A stretch of DNA of 64,000 nucleotides from an uncultured Actinomycetes bacterium (GTDB lineage Bacteria > Actinomycetota > Thermoleophilia > UBA2241), in assembly GCA_963725665.1 (NCBI GenBank), contig CAVRZA010000003.1, positions 224,001-288,000 on the forward strand, read 5' to 3'. The notes under the pieces were generated by a model that saw nothing but the letters and a program-made list of their open reading frames with translations, made no database searches and was not told the origin of the DNA. The first letter of the stretch is position 1. Each line of letters begins with the position of its first letter. Made by a program: the position numbers and the translations under genes. This document shows, piece after piece, positions 19,149 to 41,122 of the stretch.

Positions 19149-19329
19149 TTACGCAAGCGCGTCGCGCAGAGCACACGGTGCGGGTGGACGTTCGACGGAT
19201 CGCACCTCGACCTCGCTCGTCCGCGTTTCGTCGCCGTGGCGGTCCGCGGTCTGTGTCGAGGCGGTGCCGGTCGGGTACCTTGTGGCCCAGACGAAGCGGC
19301 GTGAGAAGCGATGAGGAGGTGAGGTCTGC

Positions 19330-19542
19330 TTGGCGTTGACCGTGTATACGAAGGTAGGCTGCACAGCGTGCGAGGCGCTAGTGAGAGACTTGAAGGCGCG
19401 AGACGTGCCGTATCGGCTGGTCGATATCGACCGCTCGCCCGGCGGCGCGCAGGAACTCTCTCACCTGACCGGAGGCAGGCCGACAGTGCCCACCGTAGTT
19501 GACGAGGACGGCGAAGTGCTGCTCGGTTTCGGCAACACCTGA
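19330..19542 (+). CDS. Glutaredoxin-like protein resembling the UXX-star (seleno)protein family
   Basis: YTKVGCTAC (CxxC), TVPTVV, ends GFGNT-TGA. Confidence 0.75.
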   Translation: MALTVYTKVGCTACEALVRDLKARDVPYRLVDIDRSPGGAQELSHLTGGRPTVPTVVDEDGEVLLGFGNT

Positions 19543-19680
19543 GGAGGAGACCGTGGCCTGCGTCGGCGGCTCTGGCTGGCCGAACGCAGGCGTCGGCGCG
19601 CGTGACGCGCTGGATCAACTCACCAAGCGGTGCGCCGCGCAGCGCCAGTGCATCGCTTCGCTGCTCAGGCGCGACCCTAG

Positions 19681-19711
19681 GGGTGGGCGGCAAGGGACGA
19701 GCCGCCCACCC
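19681..19711. terminator. Stem-loop between convergent genes
   Basis: GGGTGGGCGGC-N9-GCCGCCCACCC, 11-bp perfect stem. Confidence 0.55.
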
Positions 19712-19723
19712 TCTATGCGTCGG

Positions 19724-20507
19724 TCACGAAGGCTTGCTCGAATAGGTCGCCACGCGCCTCGCGTGTTCTTCTAGGCCGATCGGACAGGCGTCGTGACAGA
19801 TGAGGCACTCGTGGCTCCCACGCGGCGAGTAGTGTCCCGCCCACTTCTGCCAGGCCTTGTTGGGCTCGGCCAGCATCTCCTGCGGGACGATGCACTTCCA
19901 GAAGTCGACCTTCTTGCCGGGCTCCACGCCTTGCGATGGACCGGGGATGATGGCCCCCGTGGGGCAGGCCCTGACGCACAGCTCGCAGTCGCCACAGAGG
20001 TCCCTCGCGAACGGCTCGTCGTAGGGCAGAGCCGCGTCGGTGACCACGCAGCACCAGCGCACGCGCGGGCCAAGCAGTCGGGGTGACGCACAGGGTCTGC
20101 TTGCCGATCCACCCCAGACCGCCCATCGTGGCGGCGGCCTTCGCGTGCACGAAATGGGTGACGGCAGTCTTGTGCCCGGCGTCTCTCACGGCCTCTGCGA
20201 AGCGGTGAGCGCGGGCCTCGGTCAGCTCGTAGTAGAGATTGTAGTACTGCGATCCCGGCACGTCGTCGAAGGGGATGGCACCGTCGGGCAGCACGGACGT
20301 CACGACGGTGTTGAGCATCGTGTCCCAGATGTGCATGCCGAGCACGATGACGCTCTTCGCACCGTCGAGGAACCCGTTTGGCACCTCCAGGCAGCGATGC
20401 GGCGGAAACGGGACCGCAGCAAGCTTCTCGGCGTCGACGACGCCGAAGAACTCGAACCCATGGTCCGCTGCCTCGGCCCGCAATCGTTCCTTCAGGTCAG
20501 GCGACAC
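19724..20507 (-). CDS. QueG/reductive-dehalogenase-like 2x[4Fe-4S] protein (apparent frameshift near 20078)
   Basis: AKSVIVLG, KAAATMGGLGWIGK, TPxLGPRVR, CGDCELCVRACP, CLICHDACP. Confidence 0.8.
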
Positions 20508-37851: not shown

Positions 37852-39501
37852 ATGGCAGAAGACCAAAGCTCCGAACGGTGGCAAACGTCGGATGTGACCG
37901 ACAAGTACCTCTCCGAATACTCGGACGAGTACAAGCAATCGCGTTTCAAGACCAACATGCGCCGCGACATCAGCTGGGTCGGCGCCTTCTTCGTCGCCGC
38001 CGGCGTGCCGGCGCTCATCTTGTTCTCGATGGGCGGCATCTCGGCCGGCACCGGGCCGGTGGCCGTGCTCGTGTGGACGCTCTCTGTGCTGGTCGGCTTC
38101 GTCGACGCCTTCATCTTCGCCGAGATCGCGGGGCTGCACCCGAAGAAGTCGGGCGGTACCGCCGTGCACGGCGCCACCGCCTGGATCCGCTACATCAGGC
38201 CGGCGGCTCCGATCTCGCTGTGGTGCAACTGGCTCGCCTGGACGCCGGTGCTGGCACTCGGCTCCGGTCTCTGTGCGGGGTACCTGCTGTCGGTCTTCTT
38301 CGCTCCAGACGCCACGATCAACACGTGGACGATCGACCTCGTCAATCTCAATTTTCTCAAGAGTGGGCTGGAGCTGCGCATCAACGCCGTGTTCATCCTC
38401 GGCGCGCTCATCATGCTCGCGGTCTGGAACATCCAGCACTACGGCATCCTGCGCACTGCGCGCGTGCAATTGGTGCTCACGATCGGGGCGATGACGCCGC
38501 TGCTGGTGCTGACCCTGGTCCCGCTGTTCACCGGCGATGTGGTGATGAGCAACTTCTCGCCCTTCGTGCCCGTCAACGGCTCGTGGAACATCGACGGCTG
38601 GACGGCGTTCCTGGGCTCCTTCTTCATCGCCGCCTGGTCGGCCTACGCCTTCGAGACGGCCATCTGCTACATGAGCGAGTTCAAGAACCCCGGGCGCGAC
38701 CAGGCCAAGGCCATCCTCTGGTCGGGTGTGTTCTGCATCTTCTGCTACACCTTGATCCCGTTCGTCTGGCAGGGCGTCCTGGGCACCGACTACATGCTCA
38801 AGCCCGAGATCTACTCGGGAGCCGGCGTTCCCGCGGGCTTCGCGGCCATGTTCAACTTCGGCGCTTGGTTCACGAAGTTCTGCGCCATTGCCATGTTCTT
38901 CACCGTGATGCTCTCGGTGATGACGGCCATGTCCGGCTCGTCCCGCACGCTGTTCCAGGGCGGCCAAGACGGCTGGCTGCCAAAGTACCTCTCGCACCTC
39001 AATGAGCACAAGGTGCCGACCTGGGCCATGTGGACCGACCTCGTCTTCAACCTCTTCCTGCTGCTGATGTCGGACTACGTCTTCGTGCTCGCCGTCTCCA
39101 ACTGCAACTACATGATCTTCAACTTCCTCAACCTCAACGCCGGCTGGATCCACCGCAAGGACAACTCCAGGGTTCCGCGGCCCTTCAAAGCTCCGATGCC
39201 GCTGTTCGTGCTGGGAACGAGCTTCGCCTACCTGAACATCTTTCTGTTCGGGGCCGGCGCGAACTTCTGGGGCGCGGGCACGTTCTGGATGGGATGGATC
39301 TCGGCCCTGATCGCACTGCCGGTCTTCTACTACCGGCACTACGTCACAGACAAGGGCAAGTTCCCGGTGCACATGTTCGACGACCTCATCCCTGAGGGAG
39401 AAACGGCGCTCGGACCGACCACGTGCGGTGTGCTGCCCTACGTCGCCATAGCCGGCGGCCTGGCGTGCATGACCATCGGCTACGTGATCTTCTGGGTCTG
39501 A
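37852..39501 (+). CDS. APC-family permease, MtbP-like (putative dimethylamine uptake)
   Basis: AGVPALIL, FAEIAGLHPKKSGG, WSAYAFE, RPFKAP; 12+ TMs; follows mtbBC. Confidence 0.85.
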   Translation: MAEDQSSERWQTSDVTDKYLSEYSDEYKQSRFKTNMRRDISWVGAFFVAAGVPALILFSMGGISAGTGPVAVLVWTLSVLVGFVDAFIFAEIAGLHPKKSGGTAVHGATAWIRYIRPAAPISLWCNWLAWTPVLALGSGLCAGYLLSVFFAPDATINTWTIDLVNLNFLKSGLELRINAVFILGALIMLAVWNIQHYGILRTARVQLVLTIGAMTPLLVLTLVPLFTGDVVMSNFSPFVPVNGSWNIDGWTAFLGSFFIAAWSAYAFETAICYMSEFKNPGRDQAKAILWSGVFCIFCYTLIPFVWQGVLGTDYMLKPEIYSGAGVPAGFAAMFNFGAWFTKFCAIAMFFTVMLSVMTAMSGSSRTLFQGGQDGWLPKYLSHLNEHKVPTWAMWTDLVFNLFLLLMSDYVFVLAVSNCNYMIFNFLNLNAGWIHRKDNSRVPRPFKAPMPLFVLGTSFAYLNIFLFGAGANFWGAGTFWMGWISALIALPVFYYRHYVTDKGKFPVHMFDDLIPEGETALGPTTCGVLPYVAIAGGLACMTIGYVIFWV

Positions 39502-39651
39502 GAGCCGCAATGTAGCGCGCCGGCCGTGCGGCCGTCGCCGGCCTGCGGAGCGGCCGGCGACGGTTGGGCTAGACGGCGCAACAAGAGGGGCCGCGGCGGA
39601 GGCGAAGAGCCTCCGCCGCGGCCCCCACGTCTTGGGGCGCCGTTTCGCGGC

Positions 39652-40092
39652 CTAGACGACGAGGACCGGGATCCCTCCCGCCTCGTGGAGCACCCTGGAC
39701 GTCGTCGAACCCAATTGGGTCCGTTCGCCCTCACGAGCGCCCGCGCCCTTGGCACCGACGACGATCATGTGGGCGCCGATATCTTGAGCTATGTTGACCA
39801 CCGCCACGTCGGGCCGGTCGGGGGTGCAGGCAGTCGCCACTGCGACCCCGGCCTCTCGGACTCGTCCCGCAGCCAGATCGAGCTCGGCTTCGATCTGTTT
39901 CGAGACCTCGTCCCACAGCTCCTCGACCCCCATCTCTGGGCCGCGGAACCCGATGGCCGGTGCGGGACGATCCTGCGCGCAGGCGATCGTGATCTGGCCG
40001 TCGGGCATCAACTTGGCGATCTCGACGGCGGTGTCGAGAGCTTTGATCGAGTTCGCAGAGCCGTCGTATCCAACAACGATGTTGTAGGCCAT
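39652..40092 (-). CDS. Universal stress protein
   Basis: IVVGYDGS, IVVGAKG, LGSTTSRVL, PVLVV. Confidence 0.9.
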   Translation of the reverse strand: MAYNIVVGYDGSANSIKALDTAVEIAKLMPDGQITIACAQDRPAPAIGFRGPEMGVEELWDEVSKQIEAELDLAAGRVREAGVAVATACTPDRPDVAVVNIAQDIGAHMIVVGAKGAGAREGERTQLGSTTSRVLHEAGGIPVLVV

Positions 40093-40224
40093 CCCGCTTC
40101 CCCCTTGGTCCCAGATGTATGCGCCAACCTATACCCGGCCCAGCCGTACGGCAATCGAAGGAAGGTCTCAACCTCCTCGGGCAGCATGAGTCGTCGTGGC
40201 CGTCAGCCCTGGCCGGGATGCAGG

Positions 40225-41028
40225 CTACTCCAAGAGCCCGGCGCGATGAGCCTTGAGGTAGTTGCCGCAGTAGGGGTCCTCGCCGCGCAGCGCCTCGGCG
40301 GCCTTGATGGTGGCCAGCATCTCCTTGTTGCGCACGTCGAGCACGGCGCCGTCGATGCCCAGGCCCATGCACATGGCGACGAAGGTGCGGTTGAGCAGGG
40401 GGCGGTTGGGCAGGCCGAAGCTGACGTTGGAGAGGCCGCCGATGGTGCGCACGGGGAGGCGCTCCTTGACCATCCTTAGGGTCTCCATGGTGATCACGCC
40501 GGCGCTGGAGTCGGCCGAGACGGTGAGCACCAAGGGATCGACCCAGAGCTCGGCGGCGGGCAGGCCGGCGGCGGTCACCAGCTCGTGCATCTTGGCCGCC
40601 ACGGCGAAGCGCTCGGCGGCCGTCGCGGGCACGCCCTCGTCGGAGAGGCAGAGGCCCACCACGGAGCAGCCGTGGGCCTTTATCATGGGCAGGGCGGCGT
40701 CGATGCGCTTCTGCTCGCCGCTGATGGAGTTGATGAAGGGCACCTGGCCACCGCCGGCGAGGGCCGCCTCGACGCCGGCCCGTAAGGCCTCGGGGCTGGC
40801 CGAGTCGACCATGAGGCGCCGCTGCGAGACGCTGCGCACCGTCTCGATGAGCCAGCGCATGTCGGCCACCTCGTCGCCGCCGGCCACGCCGGCGTTGACG
40901 TCGAGGACCGCGGCGCCCGCCTCGTCCTGCTCTCGCGCGAGGCCCTTGATGAACTCGGCGTCGCGCGCCGAGATGGCCTCGCCCACCTGCTTACGTGTAC
41001 CGTTGATCGATTCACCCACGAGCAGCAT
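40225..41028 (-). CDS. Methyl-corrinoid:tetrahydrofolate methyltransferase (AcsE/pterin-binding family)
   Basis: [43 protein letters not shown]. Confidence 0.88.
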
Positions 41029-41122
41029 CTTCCAGGACCTCCACGTACGAAGCCGGTGTGTGAGAGCTGATTCTAACCCTCGCGGCGACCGAGACAACCG
41101 GTTGGCCGCCTCAGTGGGCCTT

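Follow-up and report, generated by a model that had tools for sequence, protein, structure and literature searches.

We describe here a 22 kb block of genes (19149 to approximately 41185) situated between trmD and rplS in a 64,000-nucleotide stretch of bacterial DNA, referred to throughout as the window (G000:C3:224001-288000), which lies within a 299-kb contig, C3; other C-numbers denote further contigs of the same genome. The block contains mtmB and mtbB, predicted to encode monomethylamine (MMA) and dimethylamine (DMA) methyltransferases in which one in-frame TAG codon would specify pyrrolysine (Pyl), together with genes for two corrinoid proteins, candidate importers and a pterin-binding methyltransferase. 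The host genome (3.73 Mb in 12 contigs, 68% G+C, rated 97.5% complete with 5.0% contamination) is placed by its sequence in an uncultured lineage of the Thermoleophilia (Actinomycetota). We refer to the host's own family as f1 and to another family of the sample as f4, and loci of relatives and named records are numbered L033-L045.

Methylamine genes between trmD and rplS

The features that bear most directly on methylamine use, together with the genes that flank the block, are as follows (coordinates are those of the window).

18465-19148, + strand: trmD, the left flank of the insertion.
21957-23366, + strand: mtmB, monomethylamine:corrinoid methyltransferase, with TAG at 22581-22583 (PF05369, 633 bits).
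22581-22680, + strand: match to PYLIS_1 (Rfam) starting at the mtmB TAG (57.8 bits, E 1.3e-10, below the gathering score of 70).
23480-24124, + strand: mtmC-type corrinoid protein (B12-binding and B12-binding_2; TIGR02370, 228.9 bits, cut-off 215.3).
24224-25483, + strand: Amt ammonium/methylammonium transporter (PF00909, 372 bits; TIGR00836, 418 bits).
27975-29276, + strand: APC permease 1, ethanolamine-permease-like (AA_permease, 96 bits; TIGR00908, 184.5 bits, below the cut-off of 381.75).
35379-36779, + strand: mtbB, dimethylamine:corrinoid methyltransferase, with TAG at 36438-36440 (PF09505, 664 bits; TIGR02368, 560.7 bits, cut-off 369.1).
36438-36537, + strand: PYLIS_2 (Rfam; the mtbB pyrrolysine insertion sequence), from the mtbB TAG (89.3 bits, gathering score 36, E 6e-21).
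36817-37479, + strand: mtbC-type corrinoid protein (TIGR02370, 223.1 bits, cut-off 215.3; 62% identical to mtmC).
37506-37544, + strand: perfect 19-nt inverted repeat with a 1-nt loop (arms 100% complementary), 27 nt after mtbC and before permease 2.
37825-39501, + strand: APC permease 2, of the trimethylamine N-oxide (TMAO) permease type (NF053774 'trimethylamine N-oxide permease', 747.8 bits, cut-off 690).
40225-41031, - strand: methyl-tetrahydrofolate (methyl-THF):corrinoid methyltransferase (MT2), AcsE/MeTr-like and pterin-binding (NF005719, 294.9 bits, cut-off 259).
41186-41530, + strand: rplS, then lepB and rnhB, the right flank of the insertion.

These profile matches locate every component named in an original prediction made from the letters of the window, namely mtmB-mtmC-amt, a permease module, mtbB-mtbC-permease and an AcsE-type methyltransferase, where that prediction had placed them. 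The mtmB match spans positions 1-449 of the 450 in the PF05369 profile and runs across the TAG codon. No NCBIfam family matched MtmB, for which the Pfam and PDB matches were used instead; alignment with Methanosarcina barkeri MtmB1 (PDB 1TV2/1L2Q; 509 bits) sets the TAG opposite residue 202 of 1TV2_A, which we take to be the Pyl position of the M. barkeri enzyme. Each methyltransferase (MT1) gene is followed by its cognate corrinoid protein gene, mtbC beginning 37 bp downstream of mtbB, and both corrinoid proteins score above the cut-off of TIGR02370, a family named 'pyl_corrinoid'. The amt gene starts 99 bp after mtmC and has a 70% identical paralogue at C1:514819. The genes from 20794 to 39501 are co-directional with the operon around them, with gaps mostly of 350 bp or less.

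By their sequences the two APC permeases are candidate importers, permease 1 of MMA or small amines and permease 2 of DMA or methylated amines. In 5 of 13 relatives' loci an orthologue of permease 1 (76-78% identity) separates mtmC from mtbB. In 13 of 27 archaeal loci a homologue of permease 2 (26-31% identity) stands no more than 6 kb from mtbB, and L045, a locus titled Gaiellales, contains one at 61% identity. At the contig edge of that same metagenome-assembled genome (MAG) a stretch of 56 residues (L045:1-168) is 98% identical to permease 1, the neighbouring mtbB being 60% identical, which could reflect either a recent exchange or a binning mix-up. The hairpin at 37506-37544 is a possible terminator or attenuator that could set the ratio of enzyme to transporter. 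The block's MT2 is of the same pterin-binding TIM-barrel type as MtgA/MtqA-type enzymes, the MT2 of O-demethylases and AcsE/MeTr (PDB 2YCK, 2E7F, 4O0Q); its best PDB match is AcsE/MeTr 2YCK (176 bits, to Carboxydothermus hydrogenoformans MeTr), it scores 161.5 bits against the Desulfitobacterium hafniense enzyme 4O0Q, and it is distinct from the genome's own AcsE, encoded in an acs cluster at C2:404166, to which it is 34% identical.

TAG as probable pyrrolysine codon and as stop

Both mtmB and mtbB have exactly one in-frame TAG (at residue 209 of MtmB and residue 354 of MtbB) and end in TAA or TGA, and in each of them the reading frame and the profile match run on past the TAG to the last residues. 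In MtbB, one TAG is found at the same position (residue 341-355 of the matched stretch, in pairwise tblastn comparisons with the window's MtbB) in 62 of 62 homologues, which comprise 7 rows from this genome, 12 from relatives, 16 from bacterial records and 27 from archaeal records including Methanolobus vulcani; the orthologues at 86-92% identity likewise retain it. The PYLIS_1 and PYLIS_2 matches sit in coding sequence and mainly restate this homology, and are not independent evidence of an RNA structure. The window's mtmB is the genome's only copy of a Pyl-type MtmB.

The rest of the Pyl system is encoded elsewhere in the genome. The original prediction noted correctly that the window contains neither mttB nor pylTSBCD nor a RamA/RACo activator; these genes are spread over other contigs (mttB, pyl genes and activases over C1, C2, C4, C6, C9 and C11); a search for pylT/S/B/C/D, the acs genes, formyltetrahydrofolate synthetase (FTHFS), methylenetetrahydrofolate reductase (MTHFR) and RACo found them all, which refutes the notion of a genome devoid of Pyl machinery. 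A gene for tRNA-Pyl(CUA) with a 6-bp anticodon stem and a 3-nt variable loop is located at C6:343702-343774, directly preceded on the same strand by pylB-pylC-pylD (448.5, 338.8 and 211 bits, all above cut-offs). PylSc (314.6 bits, cut-off 178.15) is encoded 46 kb from pylBCD-pylT, and PylSn (119.9 bits, cut-off 51.15) 2 kb beyond pylSc. There are thus two pyl loci, one at C6:296212-299198, where pylSc and pylSn are accompanied by an opposite-strand mtbC-like corrinoid gene and a radical-SAM-like open reading frame (ORF), and one at C6:343702-347028 with pylB-pylC-pylD and pylT. The gene order known from other bacteria has pylT first, from which the pylT-last order of this host differs.

The genome contains 31 matches to the MTTB family, six of them with one in-frame TAG, and nine MtbB matches. 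A cluster at C2:493936-513911 contains four or more divergent paralogues that share 47-49% identity with the MtbB of the window and each keep a single TAG; three of these form a long-branched clade of their own, and the divergent paralogues may act on other secondary or tertiary amines. A gene for tRNA-Sec (UCA) is also present (C11:550041-550138), so that the genome probably decodes both UGA as selenocysteine (Sec) and UAG as Pyl.

UAG is at the same time a frequent stop. Among 1,814 crude long ORFs, 1,021 end in TGA, 694 (38%) in TAG and 99 in TAA; back-up stops near TAG stops are not in excess and are no closer than after TGA or TAA stops, and release factor 1 (RF1) is present (489.9 bits, cut-off 423.25). 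It is these observations, and the fact that two other genes of the block are frame-broken, that would favour reading the TAG codons of mtmB and mtbB as true stops, in which case both genes would be decayed or split and the block inactive. We regard this as highly improbable, given that beyond each TAG both the reading frame and the profile match extend as far as the last residues, that the position of the TAG is identical in 62 of 62 homologues across two domains, and that the Pyl machinery is complete and the closest orthologues keep the codon. The mtmB and mtbB TAG codons are therefore best taken as Pyl codons, and the block looks functional as far as its sequence can tell.

From these counts UAG is an ordinary stop that is predicted to be read also as Pyl in roughly 16 genes and, because TAG stops are frequent and RF1 is present, Pyl read-through has to compete with termination. 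In Pyl-using Firmicutes, which the host resembles, UAG decoding is thought to be conditional. The host differs from archaea with a code that reads all TAG codons as Pyl, as set out in the text of a published account (PMC13695967).

The insertion, and the distribution of the Pyl trait in the family

In 22 of 22 f1 relatives rplS begins no more than 765 bp after trmD, with lepB and usually rnhB behind it, and trmD and rplS are also adjacent in 5 of 7 loci from other families. Because the two genes adjoin in all 22 relatives, the 22 kb that separates them here is an insertion and, judged by this comparison of gene orders, a lineage-specific one within a ribosomal-protein operon. Around the closest mtbB orthologues, neither trmD, rplS nor lepB, nor amt, the kinase-like gene of the block or the pterin methyltransferase, was found within 6 kb of mtbB in 13 relatives' loci.

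A second copy of the MT2 gene, 828 bp long and 99.3% identical to that of the block, lies at C6:463963-464790. Relatives have a single orthologue (22 of 24 genomes, 60-77% identity), which in 17 of 22 loci shares the context of the C6 copy, with a GGDEF regulator or S58 peptidase adjoining. This shared context, taken with the 99.3% identity, indicates that the window's MT2 is a recent duplicate at the edge of the block.

An empty site in relatives is the one sign of a mobile island that we observe. No recombinase family (integrase or transposase) was found among the 24 island ORFs scanned, the borders lack long flanking direct or inverted repeats, and no tRNA gene that could serve as a target occurs in the window's part of C3. 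A xerD-like gene (359-1315) and a xerC-like gene (46915-47952) lie approximately 17.8 kb and 5.7 kb outside the block respectively, in housekeeping context. Promoter-like sites (1 against 2.1 expected from shuffled sequence) and terminator-like sites (10 against 7.7) are no more frequent than in shuffled sequence.

An insertion of this kind raises the question of whether foreign DNA has been joined into an actinobacterial contig during assembly or binning. The contamination estimate of 5.0% could be taken in favour of such an artefact, as could the G+C content of the block (0.64-0.67 against 0.69-0.73 in the flanks) and frame errors elsewhere in this long-read assembly, where the essential gene smc is broken by a frame change into two ORFs that overlap (11306-12706 and 12685-14910). 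However, both joints return to one operon (trmD on one side, rplS-lepB-rnhB on the other) on a 299-kb contig, and a chimera would need two exact joins; the flanks are two halves of one operon, and a chimeric join at these borders is unlikely. The block's MtbB, corrinoid proteins and permeases are moreover closest to those of the same family, and its G+C at third codon positions (GC3; 0.77-0.95, most genes 0.80-0.92) lies mostly within the range of the genome (5th-90th percentile, 0.78-0.94). We accordingly consider an artefact very improbable. As a sign of recent acquisition GC3 is ambiguous, the values being slightly low (mtbB 0.865, compared to 0.89-0.96 in its paralogues) yet inside the range of the genome. 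The split of smc suggests indel errors in the assembly, which would also explain two broken genes in the block.

TrmD, a housekeeping protein encoded on the same contig, is 66-78% identical to its counterparts in 24 f1 genomes and 50-62% to those of other families of the class, in agreement with the placement of the genome. The remainder of the window is a core region containing the xerD-like gene, rnc, smc, ftsY, ffh, an unannotated stretch (17,400-18,450) and trmD, then rplS, lepB and rnhB, and further to the right rpsB, tsf, pyrH, frr, uppS, cdsA, dxr, rseP and ispG.

The other genes of the block are listed here.

19727-20507, - strand: gene for a protein of approximately 260 amino acids, interrupted by one frame change; the C-terminal part is a 2x[4Fe-4S] domain (matches to Fer4 and Fer4_16).
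20794-21306, + strand: ORF of 170 amino acids with no Pfam or NCBIfam match, GC3 0.77, and no homologue in the relatives' loci.
25544-26338, + strand: protein-kinase-like gene, 264 amino acids (Pkinase, 65 bits; no match in the relatives' loci).
26583-27125 and 27614-27883, + strand: two small membrane-protein ORFs that travel with permease 1.
29303-29758, + strand: universal stress protein (Usp; PF00582, 115 bits), which follows permease 1 in relatives.
29801-30466 and 30463-31092, + strand: two conserved ORFs with no Pfam match and assigned to no family, the second membrane-like with a Pro/Thr/Lys-rich tail.
31171-32982, + strand: cNMP-binding/CBS/DUF294 nucleotidyltransferase, a putative signalling protein (PF03445, PF10335, CBS, cNMP_binding).
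33096-35058, + strand: second DUF294-type gene, its pieces (matching cNMP_binding, CBS and DUF294_C) distributed over three or more frames.
39652-40092, - strand: universal stress protein (PF00582, 68.7 bits).

Several of these genes recur in relatives. Both small membrane-protein ORFs are kept upstream of the permease-1 orthologue in L033, L034, L038, L039 and L041 (50-65% identity), the two ORFs at 29801-31092 have counterparts at 38-54% identity placed between usp and mtbB, and copies of the DUF294 gene (approximately 51% identity) are found downstream of mtbC in L036 and L042. The second DUF294 gene of the block aligns with the first in five tblastn pieces at 51-71% identity, and is either a pseudogene or the product of assembly indels. 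An intact orthologue of the Fe-S protein, 261 amino acids in length, occurs in L040, and orthologues at 77% identity stand downstream of mtbB-mtbC-permease-usp in L040 and L043 (L040:5548-6333 and L043:6754-7173); its N-terminal domain belongs to no known family. The Fe-S protein could donate electrons for corrinoid reduction.

Of 36 other f1 genomes, 34 encode MtbB with one TAG (as many as 15 matches per genome), compared to 1 of 24 genomes from other families of the class. PylSc is present in 73 of 79 f1 genomes and 9 of 61 f4 genomes and in none of 260 from ten other families sampled; in an even sample of the phylum (401 genomes, 249 genera) it occurs only in the genome of the window and in one f4 genome. 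On these family-wide counts Pyl use is a stable trait of the f1 lineage, confined in the phylum sample to two families. Pyl-type MtmB (E <= 1e-100, one TAG) is much scarcer, being found in 2 of 40 other f1 genomes. Beside the closest mtbB orthologues, in loci titled Thermoleophilia or Actinomycetes, MtmB is encoded in 6 of 13 and MtmC in 9 of 13. By these matches the mtmBC and mtbBC module is a patchy accessory in a family that almost always holds mtbB.

Among named records, the 13 loci whose MtbB is nearest to that of the window (86-92% identity) carry the title Thermoleophilia in 12 cases and Actinomycetes in one, which bears out the earlier suggestion of a probable actinobacterium. A second tier at 58-61% identity comprises a Gaiellales-titled MAG together with MAGs of Bacillota, Desulfobacterales, 'Deltaproteobacteria', 'Proteobacteria' and Thermodesulfovibrionales, and archaeal homologues, mostly from Methanomassiliicoccales, are 48-52% identical to the window's MtbB. 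A quick IQ-TREE of the 62 MtbB rows puts the window's protein in an orthologue group of 13 rows (support 100), and the f1 rows, save the divergent three-row clade of this genome, in one group of 25 (support 95) made up of several paralogue clades. Methanolobus falls on the bacterial side on a branch of 1.58. Patterns derived from the window's MtbB served to collect the rows, and because of this biased sampling and an uncertain root we name no donor of mtbB.

Public sequence runs that share part of the window are labelled as metagenomes of peat, wetland, soil and sediment. The best share of sampled words is 0.30, and no public run held half of them or more. In an RNA-Seq soil metatranscriptome, contigs align at 90-98% identity with mtmB and its junction to mtmC, with mtbB and with mtbC. 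The sequences compared (from four runs) are Logan contigs from relatives and not reads, with possible carry-over of DNA, and carry no information on strand, expression level, identity of strain, the joints of the block or the frame breaks, and stretches without a contig are uninformative. Such contigs hint weakly at expression in relatives, in agreement with published expression in the phylum (discussed below).

Fate of the methyl groups and relation to known systems

Because of the gene content described above we propose that the block very probably comprises working genes for the stepwise demethylation of DMA and MMA in a member of the Thermoleophilia. In this model, DMA would enter through the TMAO-permease-type APC transporter, and MMA or methylammonium through the ethanolamine-permease-like transporter, through Amt, or through both; Amt proteins carry methylammonium. 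MtbB with its UAG-encoded Pyl would methylate Co(I)-MtbC with release of MMA, and MtmB, likewise with Pyl, would methylate Co(I)-MtmC with release of ammonium, which could be moved by Amt or assimilated. The AcsE-like pterin methyltransferase would transfer the methyl group from methyl-Co(III) to tetrahydrofolate (THF), and methyl-THF would then be either oxidised via MTHFR and FTHFS or condensed with CO by the carbon monoxide dehydrogenase/acetyl-CoA synthase (CODH/ACS) encoded elsewhere. Oxidised corrinoid would be reactivated by one of the two RACo-type activases of the genome, also encoded elsewhere, and tRNA-Pyl(CUA), aminoacylated by the split PylSc/PylSn with pyrrolysine made by PylBCD, would decode UAG. 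The block combines mtmBC and mtbBC modules, which are found again in close relatives, with further genes: amt, the kinase-like gene, both DUF294 genes and a recent copy of the one MT2 gene of the family. The route from DMA to MMA to ammonium with the methyl group handed to THF, as originally predicted, is the best reading of this set of genes.

Several observations weigh against this proposal. The activases, mttB and the pyl genes all lie outside the block, and the MT2 gene is on the strand opposite to the rest. Frame breaks affect the Fe-S gene and one of the two DUF294 genes, although these may be assembly errors, smc being likewise split. TAG is a common stop (694 of 1,814 ORFs, 38%) in a genome with RF1. 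The substrates are assigned from family names alone, and the contigs from RNA libraries cannot show strand, level or same strain.

The fate of the methyl groups is less certain. The original prediction envisaged anaerobic methylotrophy or acetogenesis, and the Wood-Ljungdahl genes that it would require are present: a CODH-AcsB-AcsD-AcsC-RACo-AcsE cluster, FTHFS and MTHFR. In a strictly anaerobic methylotrophic acetogen methyl-THF and CO2 would yield acetate, with ATP formed via acetate kinase, and the complete acs cluster with FTHFS, MTHFR and RACo, together with the tRNA-Sec gene and genes for aldehyde:ferredoxin oxidoreductase, could be so interpreted. We find this unlikely, as the genome, at a rated completeness of 97.5%, gave no match to PF00871 (acetate kinase; the search did not extend to an ADP-forming acetyl-CoA synthetase, which could rescue the acetogen reading), and as both heme-copper oxidase subunit I (C4:585010, 536 bits) and a cytochrome bd oxidase (531 bits) are encoded; COX1 occurs in 19 of 40 other f1 genomes. 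A TAG-containing mttB lies approximately 7 kb from the gene for heme-copper oxidase subunit I (C4:576234-586350, on a 654-kb contig). With the oxidases present and acetate kinase not found, strict anaerobic acetogenesis is doubtful, and we do not class the host as an acetogen even though it has the Wood-Ljungdahl genes. Oxidation of the methyl groups coupled to respiration, with CODH/ACS serving assimilation, is at least as likely as acetogenesis, and this part of the prediction remains uncertain.

It is conceivable, though less likely, that methylamines are demethylated chiefly for their nitrogen in N-poor peat or soil, the methyl group being an oxidised by-product; such scavenging is compatible with the mechanism proposed above. 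The amt gene 99 bp after mtmC is lineage-specific (no Amt match stands beside the cluster in the 13 relatives' loci), the block includes two signal-type DUF294 proteins and two Usp genes, and the runs that share sequence with the window are labelled peat, wetland, soil and sediment, bearing in mind that the shares are 0.30 at most and the contigs come from relatives. On the other hand, some 30 MttB homologues, nine MtbB matches and a full CODH/ACS look like specialisation for carbon and energy, and no glnA, glnB or other N-regulon gene was found among the window genes scanned.

Stepwise demethylation by Pyl enzymes, which we continue to favour, can be compared with the M. barkeri systems MtmB1/MtmC and MtbB1-3/MtbC (MtmB1: PDB 1L2Q, 1NTH, 1TV2), in which the same MT1 families have UAG at the same residue. 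As in Methanosarcina, a TIGR02370 corrinoid gene accompanies each MT1 and a PYLIS-type sequence follows the UAG; as in archaea, an APC permease, here distantly related, is linked to mtbB (13 of 27 archaeal loci). Methanogens use the coenzyme-M methylase MtbA as methyl acceptor enzyme. Unlike Methanosarcina, the block encodes an AcsE-like pterin (THF) methyltransferase (MtbA was not among the families looked for), PylS consists of separate PylSc and PylSn proteins, MT1 precedes its corrinoid gene and TAG is a frequent stop; MtbB is only 48-52% identical to its archaeal homologues.

For bacterial Pyl systems we take D. hafniense, Acetohalobium arabaticum and Bilophila wadsworthia as the organisms of comparison. 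The host is like such systems in its THF-linked methyl transfer and in keeping TAG as an ordinary stop. It is unlike these three in belonging to the Actinomycetota, in having its pyl genes divided between two loci at a distance of 46 kb, where pylT comes after pylD and a corrinoid gene adjoins pylSc, in its expansion of MtbB (nine here and up to 15 in relatives), and in its aerobic terminal oxidases. According to the text of published surveys, Pyl bacteria are counted among Firmicutes and Deltaproteobacteria (PMC9630628) and all bacterial pyrrolysyl-tRNA synthetases (PylRS) are reported to be split into PylSc and PylSn (PMC9630628, PMC11764691), as is that of the host.

The lineage was originally put forward as one with no known characterised example. 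This holds in part: we found no cultured or biochemically characterised example in the literature searched, nor, supplements aside, a description of such a locus or of mtmB in Thermoleophilia, but Pyl genes in Actinobacteriota are already in print (PMC10805028, PMC9630628). Expression of Pyl-encoding mttB and mtbB by Actinobacteriota MAGs from Stordalen Mire is reported by Ellenbogen et al. 2023 (PMC10805028), and PylRS is counted in 'two Actinobacteria' in the text of Guo et al. 2022 (PMC9630628) and of a 2025 review (PMC11764691). The window resembles the Stordalen Mire MAGs in phylum, gene families and peat/wetland habitat type; that account (genus RBG-16-64-13), its supplementary tables aside, names mttB and mtbB and not mtmB, and is without locus anatomy, a pyl inventory or family-wide counts (PMC10805028). 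The Pyl methylamine trait is thus already in print for the phylum and the locus is a further case of it. What is added here are the family-wide counts, the rarity of mtmB, the trmD-rplS insertion with its duplicated MT2, the oxidases, and frequent TAG stops alongside RF1.

The known mechanism is unchanged by these findings. Methylamines are precursors of methane in wetlands and peat, where demethylating bacteria compete with methylotrophic methanogens, and the locus provides a complete readable example, with importers, both Pyl enzymes, both corrinoid proteins and a THF methyltransferase, from an abundant uncultured family of soil actinobacteria. Its frequent TAG stops, RF1 and many Pyl genes make it a natural case for studying the management of an ambiguous codon. 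We tentatively suggest that a family of soil and peat Thermoleophilia feeds methylamine methyl groups into THF through Pyl enzymes while being able to respire O2 and using UAG as an ordinary stop in approximately 38% of genes with RF1, and that this genome may have caught the pathway while it is still being assembled, with the mtmBC/mtbBC module in a ribosomal-protein operon, a fresh MT2 duplicate and a recruited Amt that perhaps imports methylammonium. If this is so, strict anaerobes would not be the only organisms with Pyl-dependent methylamine catabolism, and in these bacteria UAG would have to be read conditionally or according to its context.

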